Shown piece by piece: positions 2,125 through 30,099 of a stretch of DNA of 42,476 nt (positions within the stretch are counted from its first letter, which is position 1; every line of letters starts with the position of its first letter). Origin of the DNA: Escherichia phage forsur. The stretch is taken from the sequence record MN850617.1. One strand, 5' to 3'. The position numbers and the translations under genes were made by a program. A model generated the notes under the pieces. It was not told where the DNA came from. It made no database searches and saw nothing but the letters and a program-made list of their open reading frames with translations.

Positions 2125-4559
2125 TGATGGACTTACTTGCTGAGCAGATTCGACTGGAAGAAGAAGCGCGAGCCAGACACCGCGAGGGCTGGCTGGATAA
2201 TATCAGAGAGGCGTTGGCCGCTGGCCGGGCTGGTTCAGTACCATTGCTCCAGCGTATGATGGTTGAGGCGTATCCTCAAGTTGAAGCTGCGATGCAAGAA
2301 CTCCTGAATGAAACTGCCCGTGGCTATGGTGCGCAGTACCGGACATACATGCGGGAGCTGGGGCCGCGAGCTTGTGCCTCACTCGCGTTGAGCATGGCTG
2401 TGTCCGGTGCCGCTGCTGAGCAAGCAGTGCTTAACTTGCTCAAGGACATGGGCAAGGCTCTCATGGCTGAGGTGGTGTACCTTCGGGCCAAGGCTGCCGG
2501 GCCTGTGCAGGCTGCGTACATGGCCAAGGTTAAGACTGACGTTAAGCGCTCTCGTTCCAAGTCAGCTAACCATGTGTATAACAAGGCGAAAGCGTCGGCG
2601 TCTAACGTTGGCGTTGAGCTGGATATCCTGCCACAGCGTGCGCTCATCACCATTGGTAAGATGATGATGAAGTGCATCGAGCCTACTGGTCTGCTGGTCA
2701 CTATGCGTGTCGGCGGCAACCACCGTCAGCGCGGCACCGCGCACTTCGCACTGCATGAAGATGTGCTGGCAACGATGAAAGATTGGATGGACTTGCCACG
2801 GGCAGACGGCCTGTGCTGTCCTCCAATGATTATCCCGCCAGCGCAGATTGCACGCGATGGTCGTAGTGGTATGTGGCACTCGCCGGGGCAGGCTGCCATG
2901 TACCGGGCAATCAGCCGCATGAACCACCGTGGCTACCGTGCGCTGGGTGTTGACCCACTGCCCATCATAGAGCCGTGTATGATGCTCAGCAGCGTTCCGT
3001 ACCGAGTTAACCCAATGGTATTGGAGTTCCTGAGAACGAACCGTACAGGCGTTATGGGGCTGCCTGTGCCGCCTCGTGAGCCTAAGCTCCCGTTCACCAT
3101 CCCGGCTGGTGTCAGCTTCGCTCAGTACATTAGCAAGTTCCCACCAGAAATGCAGCAGCAGATGGAGTCGGAAGCCCACGAGTACAAGGTGAAGACCCGT
3201 CTGTATTACAACGAGCTGCGCAAGTTCACGTCACAAATGCTGGCGCTGAACGGTGCAGTCAAAGAGGCCGAGCGCTATGCGCCATACGATAGGGTATATC
3301 TCCCGACTTACGCCGATACGCGGGGCCGAATTTATTATTCTTCGACCCTTAACCCTCAGTCCATCGACGCGGTGCGAGCGCTGCTCGAACTTGCTGAACC
3401 AGTGGCTCTCGGAGACGAGGGGCTGTTCTGGCTCAAGGTACATGTTGCGAATTGTTTTGGATACGACGCCACCGACTTCGACGACCGGGCGGCGTGGACG
3501 GACAAAACACTCCCCCGACTACGTGAGGCGTGCCGTCTTCCAGAGGCATTTGATTCGTTCTGGTCAGAAGCCGATAGCCCTATCTCAGCGTGGGCTGCTG
3601 CTGTTGAACTCATTCGAGCTATCGACTCAGGAAGTCCTGAGACTTATCCCTGCCGAGTGGTTACGCAGTGGGACGCTACATGTTCAGGACTCCAGCACCT
3701 CAGTGCGATGCTACGCGATGAGGTTGGAGGTGCTGCTGTCAATCTTGTCGATAGCGTGGGAAGAAAAGCAGACATATATCTTAAGACGGCAGCAGCGGCG
3801 ATGCAGGCTCTTGAAGAAAGTGAAGCGGCTGCGCCGACGACAATGGGTTCGTGGCTTGTTTCCATCGGCATTGTTCGGGCTATGGCCAAGAAGCCAGTGA
3901 TGACCTACGTGTACGGGGCAACCCGGCACGGCATGGTTGACTACTACTGCCTGTATCTGCGTGAGAACCGGGTCAAGCTGCCGGAGGGTAAGAGCCTGCT
4001 GGAGTGTGCTCAGTTCATTGCTGAGTTTATGTGGGCTGCTATCCCCCGCGTCGTGCCGAAAGCTGCCGAGCTGATGGCATGGTTGCAGGCTATCGCAGTA
4101 GAGGCTGCGAGCATGGGTGAGTACGTGGAGTTCACTGCGCCGTCCGGTCTTCGTGTGGTCAATCTGTATCAGGCCAGCAAAGAGATTGCGCTGAACAACA
4201 TCAACCTCATGGGTATCCACGGCATCAAGCTGCGCGAGTATCTGGATAAGCCAGATGGTCGCAAGTGTGCCGCTGCGATTGCTCCGAATTTTGTACACGC
4301 CATGGATGCCAGTCACATGATGAAGGTTCTGTGGGAGATGTGGAATAACGGGGTATACATGGTATCCATCCACGACTCGTTCGGTGTAGCGGCAGCCCAT
4401 GCTGGGTTACTGCACAAGGTCATCCGTGAAAAGTTTGTGCAGATGTATGAGGAATGTGACCCTATTCAGCAACTTGCGTCAGCATATAACCGTGAAGCTC
4501 CAGCTCGCGGTAATCTGGACATCCAGCTTGTGAAGAAATCAAGCAAGTTCTTCTGCTGA
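2124..4559 (+). CDS. single-subunit DNA-dependent RNA polymerase (T7-like)
   Basis: 811-aa ORF; contains QWDATCSGLQHLSAM (cf. T7 RNAP motif A DGSCSGIQHF) and VSIHDSFGV (cf. T7 motif C IHDSFG). Position immediately upstream of the structural module. Confidence 0.95.
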   Translation: MMDLLAEQIRLEEEARARHREGWLDNIREALAAGRAGSVPLLQRMMVEAYPQVEAAMQELLNETARGYGAQYRTYMRELGPRACASLALSMAVSGAAAEQAVLNLLKDMGKALMAEVVYLRAKAAGPVQAAYMAKVKTDVKRSRSKSANHVYNKAKASASNVGVELDILPQRALITIGKMMMKCIEPTGLLVTMRVGGNHRQRGTAHFALHEDVLATMKDWMDLPRADGLCCPPMIIPPAQIARDGRSGMWHSPGQAAMYRAISRMNHRGYRALGVDPLPIIEPCMMLSSVPYRVNPMVLEFLRTNRTGVMGLPVPPREPKLPFTIPAGVSFAQYISKFPPEMQQQMESEAHEYKVKTRLYYNELRKFTSQMLALNGAVKEAERYAPYDRVYLPTYADTRGRIYYSSTLNPQSIDAVRALLELAEPVALGDEGLFWLKVHVANCFGYDATDFDDRAAWTDKTLPRLREACRLPEAFDSFWSEADSPISAWAAAVELIRAIDSGSPETYPCRVVTQWDATCSGLQHLSAMLRDEVGGAAVNLVDSVGRKADIYLKTAAAAMQALEESEAAAPTTMGSWLVSIGIVRAMAKKPVMTYVYGATRHGMVDYYCLYLRENRVKLPEGKSLLECAQFIAEFMWAAIPRVVPKAAELMAWLQAIAVEAASMGEYVEFTAPSGLRVVNLYQASKEIALNNINLMGIHGIKLREYLDKPDGRKCAAAIAPNFVHAMDASHMMKVLWEMWNNGVYMVSIHDSFGVAAAHAGLLHKVIREKFVQMYEECDPIQQLASAYNREAPARGNLDIQLVKKSSKFFC

Positions 4560-23608: not shown

Positions 23609-24288
23609 TGTCCATCATCACCATCACTGATGCTCAGCGGTATGAGCTTGGTTATCGCTGCGGTATCGCAGCTAACGAGACTCAGCGCTTCATCAATGAC
23701 ACCCGTGCAGTGACGGCAGCTCAGGCTGCTGACATTGAAACGGCTATCACCAATCTGGTGGCGGCACTTGAGGCTGCTGGCTATGCTGGTACGCCGGAAG
23801 GTTCCGCTCTGCTGGCTGACGGCGCTACTGTATCTGTGGTCAACTCCGCAGGCAACGACGCGCACAATGCCACAGCCAACGTTACTGGCACCACGCTGGA
23901 TAATGTACAGCTCGTCCTGTCTACCGCAGCACTGGTAGACCACACTGACGCAACTGAGATTCGTCGCTTCGACGGCTCTATCCTTGGCATCACCACCGCT
24001 ACGGCCCGTGTAGCTGATGGTCTGCTGAGCAACGTGCGGCTCCCGGCCAACGCTGATGCAGTGGTTAACGGTACGGCTTATTCCGTCCGTAACTCTGCTG
24101 GCGCTGATGGCCACAACGCCACCGCTGTCGTGGCAAGCAACGGTGCTCTCTCCGGCTTCAACCTCGCCGCTACTGTGGCTATGGTGGATAACGGTGATGC
24201 ACTGGCAATCCCGGTCACTGGCACGTACACCAACACCGTGACCTTCGCTGTTTCCGCTGGTGCAATCACTGGCATTACCCTCTCTTAA
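23608..24288 (+). CDS. hypothetical protein with internal sequence repeat
   Basis: 226 aa; two similar segments (TVSVVNSAGNDAHNATANVTG / YSVRNSAGADGHNATAVVASNG); Ala/Thr/Gly/Asn-rich; located between terminase and lysis genes. Confidence 0.6.
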   Translation: MSIITITDAQRYELGYRCGIAANETQRFINDTRAVTAAQAADIETAITNLVAALEAAGYAGTPEGSALLADGATVSVVNSAGNDAHNATANVTGTTLDNVQLVLSTAALVDHTDATEIRRFDGSILGITTATARVADGLLSNVRLPANADAVVNGTAYSVRNSAGADGHNATAVVASNGALSGFNLAATVAMVDNGDALAIPVTGTYTNTVTFAVSAGAITGITLS

Positions 24289-24299
24289 TAGGAGTCTTT

Positions 24300-24485
24300 A
24301 TGGCACTTGTAGATTCTACCGCAGCCGAACGTGCAGAGTTCGTGGCAGCCTGTAATATGGCGGCTAAGTACCTGAACGTGTGGACTGAGGACTACTTCTT
24401 CGATACCACCAACACCACTCTGGTGGCGGCGTATCAGGCGTATGTCACTCGTGTGTCCAACGCGCTCACTGCGCTGACCAACTAA
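24300..24485 (+). CDS. hypothetical protein (61 aa)
   Basis: ORF in track, RBS AGGAG upstream. Confidence 0.5.
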   Translation: MALVDSTAAERAEFVAACNMAAKYLNVWTEDYFFDTTNTTLVAAYQAYVTRVSNALTALTN

Positions 24486-24494
24486 GGGGTCAAT

Positions 24495-24983
24495 ATGAAA
24501 CTGTCTCGGCTTATGGCCGGGGCAGTCCTGTCACTGTCCTTGACTTTGACGGGCTGCTCCGCAACAAGCGCACTGTCTGCTGTAACCTCGGCTGTCTCTC
24601 CCAATAAGCCGGAACTAACGGCACAGGTTGGCGCAGAGAACACGAAACAGGGCATCGGCTTGACTGCGAAACAGTCCGACGAAACGAAGGTCGGTGACGT
24701 ATCTGGTAACGCGCAAGTGGATACCGCTAAACAGGGTAGTGATTCGACGACTGTGAAGGACGTCACAGGAGGCTCTGTAAACGCTTCTAAGCAGGGTTCG
24801 CAGATTACCAATGGAAACGTGCAGGCTAAGACTATCGTGGTCTCTCAGAGCGACCCACGCAGTCTCCTGTGGGCATTTGGCATGGGCCTTACTTGTATCT
24901 TAGGTCTGGTGATGTGGTTTGTACCATCTCCGTGGAAGAAGAAGGTGAAAGATGACGGAAGCAAAGAAGGAGCCAGCTCCTAA
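24495..24983 (+). CDS. lipoprotein with C-terminal transmembrane segment (unimolecular-spanin-like)
   Basis: N-terminus MKLSRLMAGAVLSLSLTLTGCS is a signal peptide with lipobox LTGC; C-terminus LLWAFGMGLTCILGLVMWFV is a hydrophobic helix followed by KKK; RBS AAGGGG upstream. Confidence 0.6.
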   Translation: MKLSRLMAGAVLSLSLTLTGCSATSALSAVTSAVSPNKPELTAQVGAENTKQGIGLTAKQSDETKVGDVSGNAQVDTAKQGSDSTTVKDVTGGSVNASKQGSQITNGNVQAKTIVVSQSDPRSLLWAFGMGLTCILGLVMWFVPSPWKKKVKDDGSKEGASS

Positions 24984-25335
24984 CATCCACTCGCGTATGG
25001 GCGCTGTGGAGGCTCGTATGCAATCCGTAGAAACACGCCTCGACAAACACGAGATTCAAATCGCCAACCTTGAGAAAGGTGACGCTGCTATGCTGGCCAA
25101 GCTATCGGAGAACGACTCCCGGTGGCTGGAGATTCAGCAGCAGCTCCGTGTCGTCGAGCAAATTCAGGACATTCAAAAGACTATGAGCCACATCGGTAAG
25201 CTGTTCTCTTACGCGGCTCACGCCGTCAAGTGGTGTCTCCTGACCGCTTCACTCGTTAGCGGTATCTATCTTGCGGTCAAGGCTGGCGACCTAACGGCGC
25301 TCCAGTCCTTTATCACAACGATTATGGGGATGTAA
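24952..25335 (+). CDS. holin candidate (coiled-coil N-terminal region, C-terminal TMD)
   Basis: 127 aa; hydrophobic segment VKWCLLTASLVSGIYLAV near the C-terminus; overlaps the lipoprotein gene and directly precedes the endolysin gene. Confidence 0.4.
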   Translation: MTEAKKEPAPNIHSRMGAVEARMQSVETRLDKHEIQIANLEKGDAAMLAKLSENDSRWLEIQQQLRVVEQIQDIQKTMSHIGKLFSYAAHAVKWCLLTASLVSGIYLAVKAGDLTALQSFITTIMGM

Positions 25336-25871
25336 TGACTAACTTTGAAATCTGTATGAAGTTCACCGGGCTGGCCGAGGGTGGATACACCAAGCTGCCC
25401 GGTGACACTGGAGGGGAAACCAACCATGGAATTAGTGACGCTCGTGATGGGAAGCTGGATGGCAGAGCTTGTGGTGTCCCTACTGGGCTTGGCGGCACTG
25501 TGTGCGTGCCTATCAAAGACCTCACCAAAGAGCAAGCCGAGGCAATCTATCGCCGGGACTACTACAGCCCCATCAGAGGTGACGAGCTTCACCCTGCGAT
25601 TGCATGTGCCGTGTTTGATTACGGCGTCAACTCCGGCATCTCCCGTGCTGCTAAAGCTCTACAGCGGGTATGCGGCGTTGCACAGGACGGGGACATTGGT
25701 ACTGTCACCTTGGAAGCAGCACAACGTCTGGAACCTCACGCCGCAGCAGCAGCCATCTGTGACCTTCGTATTGCGTTCCTAAAGGCTTCTAAAGCCCCGA
25801 CAGTCGTTCGGTATAGGGATGCCTTGGTTGCTCGTGCAAAACGCTGTAGCGCTTACTGTGCGACGCTGTAG
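25335..25871 (+). CDS. endolysin, GH108-type muramidase domain with peptidoglycan-binding-like C-terminal region
   Basis: N-terminus FTGLAEGGYTKLPGDTGGETNHGIS matches the recalled GH108 signature (EGGY...D.GG.T..GI); C-terminal AAKALQRVCGVAQDGDIGTVT resembles PG-binding repeats; no signal peptide. Confidence 0.8.
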   Translation: MTNFEICMKFTGLAEGGYTKLPGDTGGETNHGISDARDGKLDGRACGVPTGLGGTVCVPIKDLTKEQAEAIYRRDYYSPIRGDELHPAIACAVFDYGVNSGISRAAKALQRVCGVAQDGDIGTVTLEAAQRLEPHAAAAAICDLRIAFLKASKAPTVVRYRDALVARAKRCSAYCATL

Positions 25872-26039
25872 GGGCATCTGAAAGCTGACACATTGAACAG
25901 GCCGTGGGTGCAATACCCCGGCTTGAAAATTGAACGTTTATGCGTGGGCCTCCCTCGACCCGAATGACCGCGCGTACCCCCATGACGTGTGCGCGGATTA
26001 GCCTCGCGACGTGCGCGATATTGCTCGCGTGCGCTGCGC

Positions 26040-26450
26040 GGCGCGTCAAGAGGATTGCCTGCGTGCGGTATAGCTCGTGCGTGTCGCGTTTCATCGTCTG
26101 CCGTGTGGCGTGCTGTGCGCTGTCCTGCTGGCTGTGCTGTGCGGTGCTGTCCTATGGGGACGCTCTGCGCTGGCTGTGCTGTGCTGCGTGCTGCGCTCGG
26201 TCGGGCGGGTATCTGTCTCTTTTGCCGTGGTACGCTCTGCGCCGTGGTGGTGCTGTGTGGTGGTGGTGCTGCCGTGGTGCTGTCCTGTCTGCTGGTCTAC
26301 TGTCTGCGCCGCCAGCTCTGCGCGTCATGCTCTGCTACCTGCTGCTACTGTCCTACTGCGTTCACTGGCTGCCGCCTGTCATCCTGTCGGATTCCATCCG
26401 TTGCCGTTCCGCGCTCGCTTGTTTCGGCTGCGCCGCGCTCGCTCTGCGTA
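26040..26450. repeat. A-depleted (C/G/T only on + strand) low-complexity block with degenerate GCTG/CTGTG/GGTG repeats; candidate terminal-repeat region
   Basis: Adenine is nearly absent on the + strand over ~400 bp, so no + frame contains a stop; non-coding position between the last late gene and the early promoters. Confidence 0.6.
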
Positions 26451-26462
26451 TCTAGCGATACA

Positions 26463-26485
26463 TATCACTATAGTCACTTTCATAA
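26463..26485 (-). promoter_or_regulatory. inverted exact copy of the T7-class promoter-like element at 4585..4607 (would fire leftward into the A-depleted block)
   Basis: + strand TATCACTATAGTCACTTTCATAA is the reverse complement of 4585..4607 (23/23). Confidence 0.4.
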
Positions 26486-26499
26486 TTATCTATTGATAT

Positions 26500-26590
26500 C
26501 AGTAACTTATAACCTATCTGATAACGGTATCTATCCTATGCAATAACCTATTCAATCAAATATTTATTCCTAATGATTACAGTAACTTAT
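26500..26590. repeat. AT-rich segment with 11-bp direct repeat CAGTAACTTAT (26500..26510 and 26580..26590)
   Basis: Read directly; copies are 80 bp apart, each preceded by TGAT; candidate origin or packaging iterons. Confidence 0.4.
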
Positions 26591-26622
26591 CCACTATTTG
26601 AGCTATTCAGTGAAAATAAATC

Positions 26623-26651
26623 TTGCAATGCTGTTTGTGATTTGCTGTAAT
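26623..26651 (+). promoter_or_regulatory. host sigma70-type early promoter P1
   Basis: -35 TTGCAA (26623..26628), 17-bp spacer, extended -10 TGcTGTAAT (hexamer 26646..26651); A-rich UP-like tract upstream. Confidence 0.6.
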
Positions 26652-26726
26652 TCTCATCGCCGGGTAGCAGAACATCGCTACACGGTGGCAAGACGGTAAC
26701 ACTGCTCTTTAACAATCTGGAGTGTA

Positions 26727-26755
26727 TTGACAAGGCAAGCTCACTATGCTGTAAT
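26727..26755 (+). promoter_or_regulatory. host sigma70-type early promoter P2
   Basis: -35 TTGACA (26727..26732), 17-bp spacer, extended -10 TGcTGTAAT (hexamer 26750..26755). Confidence 0.65.
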
Positions 26756-26863
26756 GCTTCCAGTCAGCCAGACAAGCCAAACAGTCATGGATAAAGACGT
26801 TAAAACCCGCGCAGGCTAACTGGTACGGATTATTCATCTCAGAATGGGCGCTGAATAAAACGG

Positions 26864-26892
26864 TTGACAGGATGAAACGAGTATGCTGTAAT
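26864..26892 (+). promoter_or_regulatory. host sigma70-type early promoter P3
   Basis: -35 TTGACA (26864..26869), 17-bp spacer, extended -10 TGcTGTAAT (hexamer 26887..26892); AATAAAA upstream. Confidence 0.65.
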
Positions 26893-26944
26893 ACGCTCCA
26901 GATTGACAGGGCAAGCAAGCCTGACAGTCAGTAGTAAAAAGTAG

Positions 26945-26973
26945 TTGACAAGCTGAATACACTGTGTTGTAAT
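26945..26973 (+). promoter_or_regulatory. host sigma70-type early promoter P4
   Basis: -35 TTGACA (26945..26950), 17-bp spacer, extended -10 TGtTGTAAT (hexamer 26968..26973); GTAAAAAG upstream. Confidence 0.65.
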
Positions 26974-27451
26974 CAGCACCGAGTTGGAAGGATGCAAAAC
27001 ATCCTGCTCTGAGTGAACGCAAACTGGCCGCGTAGTGTCACGGCTCACTGGGTATCCGCCGCAGGTTGGAACTGGGTGAGGCATCGCCGAAAGGCAACGG
27101 TATCGCAACAATGCTAACGCCGTAGGGGTAGCGCCTGATGCAAGGTAACGGAGAAGCGCGATAGACGCAGCGCAGTATCAGTACAATACCAAACGTCTTA
27201 TAAGGCGCGGAGTATAGCGGGTAGGTAGTCAAACGGCTTGTTAGCTGGCAACGGTGAGCAAGATACGCGACGGACTGCTGGAAGACTCCTGAGAGTGGAT
27301 GCAGACAATATCCACAGCGCGAAATGGGCGGGGCGATTTTTCAGGGTAGTGAATCCGACAAGCCAATCAATGCCACTGAGTGCAGACTGTACGGCGCGTC
27401 ACAATGGGTTCACTATCCACCTGAAAATAGCCAACAACTGGAGAAATAACT

Positions 27452-27844
27452 ATGTACCGTATCTATGCAAGCGCATATCGTCAGAACAACGCTGAGTGTG
27501 TTAATCTGGCGCTTCATTGCAAGGCACTGCGAACGGTGCAGGATATGTTCGGAGTGATTCCGGTCACACTGACAGGCAAGTTCGACAATGCGTATGAGTT
27601 AAGCATGGTCTTTCCTGTCGATGGAATCTACGAAATCAGACAGGCTGTTAAGCTGTTCTGTAAAGCCTTTGAACAGGACTGCATCATGGTAGTGACCGAT
27701 GACAATGATGCAATCTTCATGGATTCACCATATCCGGGCAAGCCTGCTGGCAAGTTTGTCAGCAAGACAGAAGCGGAGATGGAAGCCGGGCAGTTCACTG
27801 CTTGGACTTACGATGGTGAGCAATTTTGGGTAGTGGAGGCGTAA
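27452..27844 (+). CDS. hypothetical early protein (130 aa), first gene after the leader
   Basis: ATG 27452 with GGAG 8 nt upstream; ORF in track. Confidence 0.7.
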   Translation: MYRIYASAYRQNNAECVNLALHCKALRTVQDMFGVIPVTLTGKFDNAYELSMVFPVDGIYEIRQAVKLFCKAFEQDCIMVVTDDNDAIFMDSPYPGKPAGKFVSKTEAEMEAGQFTAWTYDGEQFWVVEA

Positions 27845-27845
27845 T

Positions 27846-27917
27846 ATGTTCACTGCACTCTGTGTGATAGCGGCGGCGTGCTGGCTGATTGACCAGCGCC
27901 TGTCTAAGCGAGCCTGA
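27846..27917 (+). CDS. tiny hydrophobic peptide (23 aa), speculative
   Basis: ATG follows upstream stop by 1 nt with GGAGG 8 nt upstream; MFTALCVIAAACWLIDQRLSKRA. Confidence 0.25.
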   Translation: MFTALCVIAAACWLIDQRLSKRA

Positions 27918-27918
27918 T

Positions 27919-28002
27919 ATGTGGGACTTACTGGTAGCGTTGTTCTGGTTTGTCTTTGCAGGCTTGTGGATTTACTGGTTGACTCGTCCCAAATTATGGT
28001 GA
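27919..28002 (+). CDS. tiny hydrophobic peptide (27 aa), speculative
   Basis: MWDLLVALFWFVFAGLWIYWLTRPKLW; weak RBS. Confidence 0.25.
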   Translation: MWDLLVALFWFVFAGLWIYWLTRPKLW

Positions 28003-28008
28003 CTGCCT

Positions 28009-28030
28009 AATGCGTCTTGCGAGGCGCATT
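28009..28030 (+). promoter_or_regulatory. intergenic hairpin with UUGCGA hexaloop (copy 1 of 4)
   Basis: AATGCGTC-TTGCGA-GGCGCATT; 8-bp stem including one G-U pair. Confidence 0.45.
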
Positions 28031-28066
28031 GTGAAGTAACCAACCAACAACCCGACGAGGTGTATC

Positions 28067-28594
28067 ATGACTACTGTTAAATATACTGCATTCAAAGATG
28101 CTGCGGCGCTGGACAAAGCTATCGAAGCGACTGTCAAAAAGGCGCACTCACTCCGTAACGATATTCAGAATGTTGCGGTCGGTATTATCCTGCACGCTTA
28201 CCATCACGGCGACTACACTCGTGCTGAGTCGTTCACTCACCAACTGGGTGATGGCGTCCGTGGTAAGGCACTGGTTGACTGGTTCGTCCAGTTCGGCGGC
28301 CTGATTGTGGGTGAGCATGAAGATGGCAAGTCCGGCTTCGTTGGCTGGAAGGGTGCCGACTTCATCAAAGAGAACATCGACAAGGCGAAAGCCACGATGT
28401 GGTGGACTTGCAAGCCAGAAGCGGCCTTTGATGGCTTCGACCTGCAAGATGCGCTCGAAAAGCTGATTGCCAAAGCTGAAAAGGCAATGAACAAGGCGAA
28501 CGAGCTGCGCCACGAAGGGCGCGATGAGGATGCGAACAAGGTTGTCGTGCCTCAGAACGTGCTGGACGGCCTGCGCAAGCTGAAAGCTGCGTAA
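28067..28594 (+). CDS. hypothetical early protein (175 aa)
   Basis: ORF in track; RBS GAGG upstream. Confidence 0.7.
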   Translation: MTTVKYTAFKDAAALDKAIEATVKKAHSLRNDIQNVAVGIILHAYHHGDYTRAESFTHQLGDGVRGKALVDWFVQFGGLIVGEHEDGKSGFVGWKGADFIKENIDKAKATMWWTCKPEAAFDGFDLQDALEKLIAKAEKAMNKANELRHEGRDEDANKVVVPQNVLDGLRKLKAA

Positions 28595-28607
28595 GCGGGA
28601 TTGACTC

Positions 28608-28629
28608 AAGCCATCTTGCGAGGTGGCTT
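28608..28629 (+). promoter_or_regulatory. intergenic hairpin with UUGCGA hexaloop (copy 2 of 4)
   Basis: AAGCCATC-TTGCGA-GGTGGCTT; followed by GGCAATTCTGCC at 28633..28644. Confidence 0.45.
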
Positions 28630-28667
28630 TATGGCAATTCTGCCCCAACAATTACGGAGTATCATCC

Positions 28668-28952
28668 ATGACCACTAAAACTGTTCTGGCCTACGTCACC
28701 AAGAAAGGCGAAGAAGTGTACGGCTATGCTGTGTCTATCGACGGCGGCCACAACTACCTGCATCACGTTCGTGAAGAAGGTGAACCGACTGACCACGATG
28801 GCATTCTGGAAACGCTGAAAGGCATCCCGCTGCCGCACGAAATCATCTGTATGCTGGCTGGCCAGACGGAAGATGACCTGCAACTGCGTCACGGCGACGA
28901 CCTGACCATTCAGGGTATCGGCAGCTTCGAAGCTGACGTAGACGACGAATAA
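28668..28952 (+). CDS. hypothetical early protein with acidic C-terminal tail (...GSFEADVDDE)
   Basis: ATG 28668 preceded by GGAG; ORF track starts it earlier (GTG 28623) across the hairpin, which is unlikely. Confidence 0.7.
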   Translation: MTTKTVLAYVTKKGEEVYGYAVSIDGGHNYLHHVREEGEPTDHDGILETLKGIPLPHEIICMLAGQTEDDLQLRHGDDLTIQGIGSFEADVDDE

Positions 28953-28962
28953 GCGTTGTCCT

Positions 28963-28986
28963 GCTGCATCCTTGCGAGGGTGCAGC
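28963..28986 (+). promoter_or_regulatory. intergenic hairpin with UUGCGA hexaloop (copy 3 of 4)
   Basis: GCTGCATCC-TTGCGA-GGGTGCAGC; followed by GGCAATACTGCC at 28989..29000. Confidence 0.45.
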
Positions 28987-29025
28987 GTGGCAATACTGCC
29001 TTATTCCAATCTGAGGATTAATCCT

Positions 29026-29106
29026 ATGTCTACACTGAAACTGGTACTGATTTCTAACATCGCTGCTGACGCTTTCGACGCTGATGACGTGGACTTCTCT
29101 GCGTGA
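29026..29106 (+). CDS. tiny acidic peptide (26 aa), possible remnant of the acidic-tail family
   Basis: ATG 29026 with GAGG 8 nt upstream; MSTLKLVLISNIAADAFDADDVDFSA. Confidence 0.3.
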   Translation: MSTLKLVLISNIAADAFDADDVDFSA

Positions 29107-29113
29107 TACCTTA

Positions 29114-29135
29114 CTGCCTCGTTGCGACGGGGCAG
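29114..29135 (+). promoter_or_regulatory. intergenic hairpin with UUGCGA hexaloop (copy 4 of 4)
   Basis: CTGCCTCG-TTGCGA-CGGGGCAG; followed by GGCAATCATGCC at 29139..29150. Confidence 0.45.
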
Positions 29136-29171
29136 TGCGGCAATCATGCCCAACCTAACTGGAGATTTACC

Positions 29172-29453
29172 ATGGCTACAATCAACGTGTATTCCCTGAG
29201 CAACGGCGGTCTGGCATTCATCGCTGGTGATAAGGTAGACGAAGCGCCGTCGCTGGGCGTGACGCCGAAACCGGAGGCCAGCCGTGATGATGTTATCGCG
29301 GAAGTCAAGGGTGCGCTGGAAGACCTCGGCGGTCTGCTGTTCGTCCTGAATGGTGGCAAGCTGTCGGTTGAAAAGCTGGACGCGCTGGAACCTGTCTTTG
29401 TTGAGAGCTTCGAAGCTGACAACATCGACCTCGCTGCTTTCGCTGACGCCTAA
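29172..29453 (+). CDS. small acidic early protein, tandem paralog A (MATINVY...SFEADNIDLAAFADA)
   Basis: ATG 29172 preceded by GGAG; alignable end-to-end with 29791..30099. Confidence 0.75.
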   Translation: MATINVYSLSNGGLAFIAGDKVDEAPSLGVTPKPEASRDDVIAEVKGALEDLGGLLFVLNGGKLSVEKLDALEPVFVESFEADNIDLAAFADA

Positions 29454-29491
29454 GCATAACCCGAAACCCACAACCAAAGAGGACAATCAAC

Positions 29492-29722
29492 ATGGCTAAG
29501 TTTGAACTGGTACGCTTCATTGACCCGAACGATGGCGAAGAAACCTTCGCGCAGTTTGCTGATGACCGCTCGCTGGTCGCCATCTACAACACTGAGCGCA
29601 CGGCGCGGCGCTGGTTCAAGGAAGACGACGACATGGACAGCATCGAAGAAGCGCTGGCTATGCCGGGCTACGCTGAGGCTGTCGAGGCAGCACTGAAAGG
29701 CGAAGTCGTAGCGACTGCGTGA
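29492..29722 (+). CDS. hypothetical small acidic protein (76 aa)
   Basis: ORF in track; RBS AAGAGGA upstream. Confidence 0.7.
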   Translation: MAKFELVRFIDPNDGEETFAQFADDRSLVAIYNTERTARRWFKEDDDMDSIEEALAMPGYAEAVEAALKGEVVATA

Positions 29723-29790
29723 TTTCTGTCAGCCCATCCATAGCGGTGGGCTGTAGGGCAATCATGCCACAACAACTGAGGGTATACACC

Positions 29791-30099
29791 ATGGCAACTA
29801 TCAACGTCTACAAAACTATCACTGGCTCACTGGTATTCGTAGTGGGTGAACTGCGTGAAGATGCACCAATCGTTGGCGTGTCTCTGCGTGAAGGGGCAAC
29901 CGAGGCTGACGCCATCGCTGAGATTCGTCAGAACATTGAGAACCTCGGCGGCCTGTTCTTCCTGCTGCAAGGTGGCAGCCTGAACCTCGCTAAGTTGCAG
30001 GAGCATGAGCCTGTACTCGTGACCAGCTTCGAAGCGGAAGATGTAGACGCCAGTGACTTCGAAGCCAGCCGCGCTGACGAAGAAGAAGCAGGCGAGTAA
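29791..30099 (+). CDS. small acidic early protein, tandem paralog B (MATINVY...SFEAEDVDASDFEAS...)
   Basis: ATG 29791; upstream hairpin 29730..29753 and GGCAATCATGCC at 29757..29768 mirror paralog A. Confidence 0.75.
   Translation: MATINVYKTITGSLVFVVGELREDAPIVGVSLREGATEADAIAEIRQNIENLGGLFFLLQGGSLNLAKLQEHEPVLVTSFEAEDVDASDFEASRADEEEAGE

Follow-up and report, generated by a model that had tools for sequence, protein, structure and literature searches.

Tandem promoters for the host RNA polymerase (RNAP) are a kind of element long known from phage T7, in which the -10 boxes of A1, A2 and A3 are GATACT, TAAGAT and TACGAT and keep both A(-11) and T(-7). Two sites homologous to those described here are already annotated in GenBank, as 'putative Pantoea specific promoter', in LIMEzero (Waewaevirus, FR751545). 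The adenine at -11 has been called 'near universal'; it flips into a pocket of sigma and nucleates melting (PMC12781870). Its exchange for T lowers the affinity of RNAP for fork-junction probes about 300- to 1000-fold (PMC3753650).

Here we describe four sites, P1 to P4, in the window, that is, the whole 42,476-nt stretch of DNA that was analysed (Escherichia phage forsur, MN850617.1). This DNA is the circularly permuted genome of a T7-like coliphage of the genus Bonnellvirus (Autographiviridae). Judged from sequence comparison, we put the probability at about 0.8 that P1-P4 are sigma-70 host-RNAP early promoters of a phiKMV/T7-type phage and the counterpart of T7 A1-A3. The coordinates of all features are collected in Table 1.

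Table 1. Features of the predicted early promoter region and its surroundings, in coordinates of the window.
Feature	Coordinates	Strand	Remarks
Left genome end (inferred)	~25915	+	LIMEzero nt 4-67 align to 25918-25981
A-poor tract	25941-26440 (500 bp)	+	5-8% A
AT-rich block	26441-26622	+	between A-poor tract and P1
Two 32-nt direct repeats	26490-26521, 26570-26601		in AT-rich block upstream of P1; repeat family D15
Exact matches to IHF consensus WATCARNNNNTTR	26497-26509, 26554-26566	+	upstream of P1
P1	26623-26651	+	-35 TTGCAA 26623-26628, 17 nt ending TGC, -10 TGTAAT 26646-26651; A-rich tract just 5' of -35 at 26613-26621; predicted start ~26657-26659
Block CTCTTTAACAATCTGG	26706-26721		upstream of P2
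P2	26727-26755	+	-35 TTGACA 26727-26732, 17 nt ending TGC, -10 TGTAAT 26750-26755; predicted start ~26761-26763
P3	26864-26892	+	-35 TTGACA 26864-26869, 17 nt ending TGC, -10 TGTAAT 26887-26892; A-rich tract just 5' of -35 at 26854-26860; predicted start ~26898-26900
Fifth TTGACA, without -10 box	26903-26908	+	between P3 and P4; P2-like spacer start GGGCAAGC
P4	26945-26973	+	-35 TTGACA 26945-26950, 17 nt ending TGT, -10 TGTAAT 26968-26973; A-rich tract just 5' of -35 at 26936-26940; predicted start ~26980-26982, within conserved CAGCACCGAG
Leader, non-coding, structured, ~470 nt	26981-27451	+	fold z-score -2.6 vs shuffled controls
5' hairpin GGAUGCAAAACAUCC	~26990-27004	+	compensatory GAUG/CAUC vs GUUG/CAAC in relatives
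Long irregular hairpin	27332-27432	+	directly 5' of SAMase ribosome-binding site, 8 nt before GGAG
SAMase ribosome-binding site GGAG	27440-27443	+	5' of 27452-27844
First early gene, anti-restriction SAM hydrolase (SAMase) homolog, 130 aa	27452-27844	+	phrog_2226, E = 7.7e-30

About 20 phage records align to the promoter region with 83-97% identity. They all belong to Bonnellvirus (Autographiviridae) and include J8-65, the Danish '-sur' coliphages, Kosakonia Kc261, Cronobacter RZ4 and Pantoea ROV85; the hosts of these phages belong to several genera of Enterobacterales. Alignment to the start of LIMEzero places the physical left end directly after the lysis genes (spanin, endolysin). Counted from this inferred end, the array thus occupies about 0.7-1.06 kb; it is oriented with the coding strand and stands in DNA free of genes, ahead of the first early gene. 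The linear record of J8-65 has a terminal repeat at 1-259, the same four promoters at 687-1036 and gene 1 (SAMase) at 1468; its gene order is phiKMV-like, and about 17 kb separate the left end from the phage RNAP gene. The A-poor tract presumably holds the collapsed direct terminal repeat; a 171-aa open reading frame (ORF) running through it (25940-26455) has no family match and was rejected as spurious. The two direct repeats of the AT-rich block are 78% identical and 80 bp apart, and their core, AATGATTACAGTAACTTATC, is kept in all bonnellviruses. The IHF consensus, which has two exact matches in this stretch, occurs 8 times genome-wide against 1.5 expected, and the chance of a match near P1 is inflated by the local AT-richness.

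The sequence-only reading had proposed four tandem host-type promoters here, each with a TTGCAA or TTGACA -35 hexamer, a 17-bp spacer ending in TGc or TGt, a TGTAAT -10 box and an A-rich tract upstream. When the coordinates were checked, the four sites were found as described, with spacers of exactly 17 bp in all four sites of this genome and a TG extension that is TGC in P1-P3 and TGT in P4; the A-rich tracts are present at P1, P3 and P4, and P2 has none. Across the whole genome, TTGMMA-N17-TGTAAT has four matches against 0.01 expected, all of them on the plus strand and within 351 bp, and none of 100 shuffles reached four. On both strands of the 42.5 kb, only P2-P4 agree with TTGACA/TATAAT at 11/12 positions, and P1-P4 as a group rank highest in the genome for resemblance to sigma-70 sites. 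TGTAAT itself occurs 17 times; a TTG-type -35 at 17 nt together with a TGn extension is found only in P1-P4, and the other 13 copies lack this context. Nor do the repeat families of the genome include a repeated phage-RNAP promoter family with TGTAAT. A generic sigma-70 promoter scan gave no canonical plus-strand promoter in 24000-30000 and missed P1-P4 too, solely because it accepts nothing but A as the second -10 base.

Set against the features of a sigma-70 promoter, the -35 hexamer matches TTGACA at 6/6 positions in P2-P4 and at 4/6 in P1, the spacers fall within 17 +/- 1 bp, TGTAAT matches TATAAT at 5/6 positions with T(-12) and T(-7) invariant, and the optional extended -10 TG is present at -15/-14. 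The adenine at -11 is missing, with G in all four sites, and for this reason we class P1-P4 as working like sigma-70 promoters, as atypical members. The fifth TTGACA, without a -10 box, is kept in all bonnellviruses and appears to be what remains of a promoter duplication. The block CTCTTTAACAATCTGG also occurs in LIMEzero and in two metagenomic relatives (L021, L023), amid surroundings that do not align. Candidate roles for the block are those of a distal UP element, of a binding site for some factor, or of a structural portion of the P1 transcript.

We compared an ingroup of 22 related genomes, including sixteen bonnellvirus relatives, LIMEzero from the sister genus Waewaevirus and four metagenomic relatives from IMG/VR (L021, L023, L024, L047) that were reached via the neighbouring gene gp2. 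A scan for the hairpin pattern gave mostly chance matches and one new relative, L047. Among the 16 bonnellviruses the mean pairwise identity is 0.96 for all hexamers, 0.81 for all spacers and 0.83 for the remaining region, and at P1 the contrast is sharper (hexamers 0.98-1.0, spacer 0.63). Within the genus the hexamers depart from the pattern in three phages: a deletion in Lidtsur has joined P2 to P3, altidsur has TTGCCA, and P4 of smaasur reads TGAAAT. Conservation within the genus is by itself weak evidence, since the bonnellviruses are 83-97% identical here. Given the relic at 26903, the Lidtsur fusion and the smaasur box, the array appears to evolve by duplication, deletion and decay. The distances between promoters differ by 1-2 nt among bonnellvirus genomes, and because these shifts are not multiples of 3 we regard the promoter region as non-coding. 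ROV85 and HHU8 have annotated minus-strand and small ORFs here, but indels among relatives break their frames, so these are probably not genes.

Beyond the genus the hexamers persist. LIMEzero and the IMG/VR relatives have SAMases only 26-32% identical to that of the window and spacers that cannot be aligned, yet TTGxxx-17/18-TGTAAT stands at the same place. Over the 22 genomes, which represent five or more lineages, TGTAAT is the -10 box of 32 of the 34 distinct promoters and TATAAT of none; G occupies -11 in 33 of the 34. The exceptions are P4 of smaasur (TGAAAT) and the last promoter of L023 (TTGACA-18-AACTAT, extension TGC); they surfaced from an unbiased listing of every TTGACA in the ingroup early regions, which added no other promoter-like site. 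A -10 box described beforehand as atypical and strictly conserved is therefore both, and the description was an understatement: the conserved oddity is G at -11, kept almost throughout the ingroup where outgroups have A, with two departures from the full hexamer.

The 32 distinct TGTAAT promoters carry TGN before the -10 box in 30 cases (TGC in 22) and have spacers of 17 nt (22 promoters) or 18 nt (10 promoters); P1 has an ortholog in every relative, with a spacer of divergent sequence that alternates between 17 and 18 nt, and the P4 spacer is also 18 nt in several. Their -35 hexamers vary more than the -10 box: TTGACA in 17, TTGCAA in 11, TTGACG in 2, and TTGCCA and TTGTCA in 1 each. These 32 sequences do not count as independent, since they come from related genomes and P1-P4 are probably paralogous to one another. 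TGTAAT promoters number 3-4 per genome in bonnellviruses and 1-3 in the other lineages. No TGTAAT promoters were found in Erwinia phage Era103, which has a distant SAMase homolog. A metagenome scan with gp2 returned only distant relatives at 30-44% identity, mostly on short contigs, a SAMase scan returned no new lineages, and a viral-contig scan for TTGACA-N14-TGNTGTAAT gave scattered single matches among the matches listed. The Waewaevirus-type genomes LIMEzero (989-1336) and L023 (2110-2453) have an extra small ORF that separates the first early promoter from the last; bonnellviruses lack this ORF, and in LIMEzero it has no CDS annotation.

The outgroup comprised 14 loci with a gp2 homolog at 40-48% identity, including the Aeromonas phages phiAS7 and 25AhydR2PP. 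Their arrays combine TTGACA, usually at 17 nt, with a variable TAnnnT -10 box (for example TAGAGT, TAAGAT, TAGTAT or TAACAT); position 2 of the box, that is, -11, is A in 32 of 39 sites and G in one. Ingroup and outgroup alike have A/T-rich tracts 5' of the -35. The last promoter is orthologous between the two groups: TAAGAT, TATGAT or TAACAT followed by (G/A/C)GGCACC in the outgroup stands opposite TGTAAT followed by CAGCACC in the ingroup, with 17-nt spacers in both. This orthology fixes the register, so that TGTAAT spans -12 to -7, with its G at the place of A(-11). The alternative registers GTAATN, TAATNN and AATNNN were rejected, as they need spacers of 18-20 nt, lose T(-7) and contradict the orthology. 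The outgroup contig L032 (IMG/VR) has TTGACA-17-TGTACT at 3003-3031, where its orthologs have TATGAT or TAAGAT; on this alignment we take TGTACT to be an independent A-to-G change at -11 within the same promoter family.

By the sequences compared here, a clade in which nearly every early promoter lacks A(-11) is genuinely atypical. G at -11 should impair the nucleation of melting severely, and activity with sigma-70 alone is not assured. There is some precedent for a base other than A at this position beside TTGACA-17, one case being the trp promoter, with its -10 box TTAACT. Another is the TGTACT site of L032. A third comes from a SELEX study with E. coli RpoD holoenzyme, where a site at bdcA was computationally assigned TTGACA-17-TGTAAT (PMC3946193). 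Our literature search on TGTAAT as a -10 box returned nothing relevant beyond computational assignments and, the original LIMEzero description aside, no discussion of a clade-wide G(-11). The AACTAT box of L023 shows that the ingroup clade is able to return to a box of the A(-11) type.

Structured RNA begins right after the predicted starts. Short 5' hairpins with compensatory variants follow both P1 and P4, and the leader downstream of P4 measures about 415-470 nt in four lineages and about 480 nt in L023, with several helices that keep their pairing through sequence change. Its most prominent element is the long irregular hairpin (MFE -38.2 kcal/mol), which has about 30 pairs, at least 11 of them with compensatory double changes and almost none broken, in an RNAalifold analysis of 8 sequences; compensatory changes occur across Bonnellvirus, LIMEzero and IMG/VR relatives. 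One example of compensation is GUAGUGAA/UUCACUAU vs GUAGCCCA/UGGGCUAC vs GUAGUUCA/UGAACUAU. From its position and shape, the hairpin is probably a site for RNase III processing of the T7 R0.3 type. Rfam gave no match to leader or hairpin in 26000-28000. Homologs of the SAMase gene that follows are labelled 'anti-restriction SAMase' in the records of J8-65, usur and glasur.

The proposal that the array is a battery for host RNAP of the T7 A1-A2-A3 type has gained support from its position, strand and architecture and from comparison with J8-65, the 22 genomes and the LIMEzero annotation. We favour this reading because the sites have sigma-70 geometry and canonical orthologs, are the sole good candidates upstream of the early genes, and have structured RNA just downstream. 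As the left genome end enters the cell, host RNAP would bind through the consensus -35, the TG extension and the A-rich, UP-like tracts, initiate about 7 nt after each TGTAAT and transcribe rightwards. The transcript would cross the structured 470-nt leader, probably be cut by RNase III at the long hairpin, and continue into the SAMase gene and other early genes. With the gene for the phage RNAP about 17 kb further downstream, much of the middle region is probably transcribed from P1-P4 as well.

For such promoters, G(-11) would weaken and slow DNA opening. The defect may be offset by other determinants, namely the consensus -35, the TG extension, the five other -10 positions and the A-rich tracts, and by the presence of four promoters in tandem. 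We propose that the loss of A(-11) requires all remaining contacts to be optimal and that this has frozen the other five -10 positions; an ingroup fixed on TGTAAT beside an outgroup with a freely varying TAnnnT fits such compensation. Why the G is kept is a matter of speculation. A change from G to A would yield the full consensus TTGACA-17-TGnTATAAT, which might bind too tightly and escape poorly, while other single changes might kill the promoter, so that TGTAAT would be a stable local optimum. A bolder proposition, which we think rather improbable, is that selection has produced, in the early promoters of the Stentvirinae, a natural class of promoters for the host polymerase that can do without A(-11). 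Either sigma-70 would have a melting route outside the flipped-A(-11) model, or a virion or host factor would open the DNA and make G(-11) a phage-specific 'private' code.

A dependence on help of this kind is the best-surviving alternative to sigma-70 promoters that act unaided, and an unlikely one. P1-P4 would be host-polymerase promoters that depend on a virion protein delivered by ejection, on a host factor distorting the -11 pair or on another holoenzyme such as sigma-S, with the G as a specificity determinant. The near-invariance of G(-11) over deep divergence, where outgroups use A, speaks for this, as does the failure of any ingroup promoter to revert to TATAAT though a single transition would suffice. 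Most sites also have C at -13, a known preference of sigma-S (22 of 32 have TGC), and a pair of IHF-consensus matches lies upstream of P1. Activators can rescue defective unpairing at -11 (PMC12781870). Against a helper, a G at the corresponding place of the -10 consensus is not known for any E. coli sigma factor, no candidate factor was found, and the hosts span several genera of Enterobacterales. AACTAT in L023 and TGAAAT in smaasur further indicate that the G-T dinucleotide is not strictly required.

Less probable still is that P1-P4 are not productive promoters at all. They would then be bipartite sites for another protein, or decoys that hold polymerase in closed complexes, and transcription would start elsewhere, for example in the AT-rich block. 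This is where the poor opening predicted from G at -11 (PMC3753650) would lead, and the block with its repeats does lie just upstream. TTGACA and the complement of TGTAAT also share 4/6 positions as an inverted repeat, T-ACA-N17-TGT-A forming a weak dyad. Against this stand the 17/18-nt spacing, TG(-15/-14), T(-7) and A-rich tracts, which reproduce sigma-70 geometry exactly, and the orthologous outgroup sites, which are canonical promoters. The plus strand of 24000-30000 offers no canonical promoter to take their place, no site of 11/12 or better exists elsewhere in the genome, and the structured leaders begin right after the starts predicted from P1-P4. By inspection, motifs for LexA, CRP, sigma-54, sigma-28, sigma-32 and sigma-E gave no fit to the sites. 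Chance, or shared ancestry without function, gains something from the 83-97% identity of the bonnellviruses but is effectively refuted by four matches where 0.01 are expected and by hexamers kept in LIMEzero, L021, L023, L024 and L047, where spacers and flanks have diverged beyond alignment.

Read as sigma-70 early promoters, P1-P4 locate a predicted early transcription start region that has been without annotation in bonnellviruses: none of the bonnellvirus GenBank records examined annotates homologs of P1-P4, and the word 'promoter' does not occur in the bonnellvirus papers examined. They also define a predicted early transcription unit of promoters, structured leader, processing hairpin and SAMase gene. 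The two sister phage clades amount to a natural experiment in which orthologous promoters carry A or G at -11, the master nucleation point of opening. Should the sites be active with sigma-70 alone, they would measure how far other elements compensate for the loss of A(-11) and may illustrate selection against over-tight consensus promoters; should they be inactive alone, this would point to a helper at the very first step of infection. As compact candidate promoters, they may also serve phage engineering and synthetic biology.

Among described systems, LIMEzero comes with two homologous sites, TTGTCA-17-TGTAAT at 807 and TTGACG-17-TGTAAT at 1405, whose placement with respect to genome end, leader hairpin and SAMase gene is the same. 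It differs in having two TGTAAT sites, a third annotated site at 928-974 without TGTAAT, and the extra ORF between. The outgroup arrays share TTGACA-17, A-rich upstream tracts, the tandem layout and the orthologous last promoter with a GCACC initial transcribed sequence, whereas their -10 box is a variable TAnnnT and that of the ingroup a near-fixed TGTAAT. A canonical E. coli sigma-70 extended -10 promoter (TTGACA-17-TGnTATAAT) has the same -35, spacer length, TG(-15/-14), T(-12), T(-10), A(-9), A(-8) and T(-7), and differs in A(-11), which is G here.

The resemblance to T7 covers more than the promoters. Both phages have tandem host promoters with a strong -35 on the coding strand within the first ~1 kb after the terminal repeat, about 80-140 bp from one promoter to the next, and a long hairpin (R0.3 in T7) just before an anti-restriction first gene (0.3 in T7; here SAMase, as in T3). 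The two marks of the T7 array, a left-end position after the terminal repeat and several tandem conserved copies, are both found here. T7 has three promoters with varied -10 boxes that contain A(-11), and a leader of about 175 nt; this locus has four, all with TGTAAT, and a leader of about 470 nt. With the phage RNAP gene as far from the left end as it is in J8-65, host RNAP probably transcribes far more of the genome than in T7.
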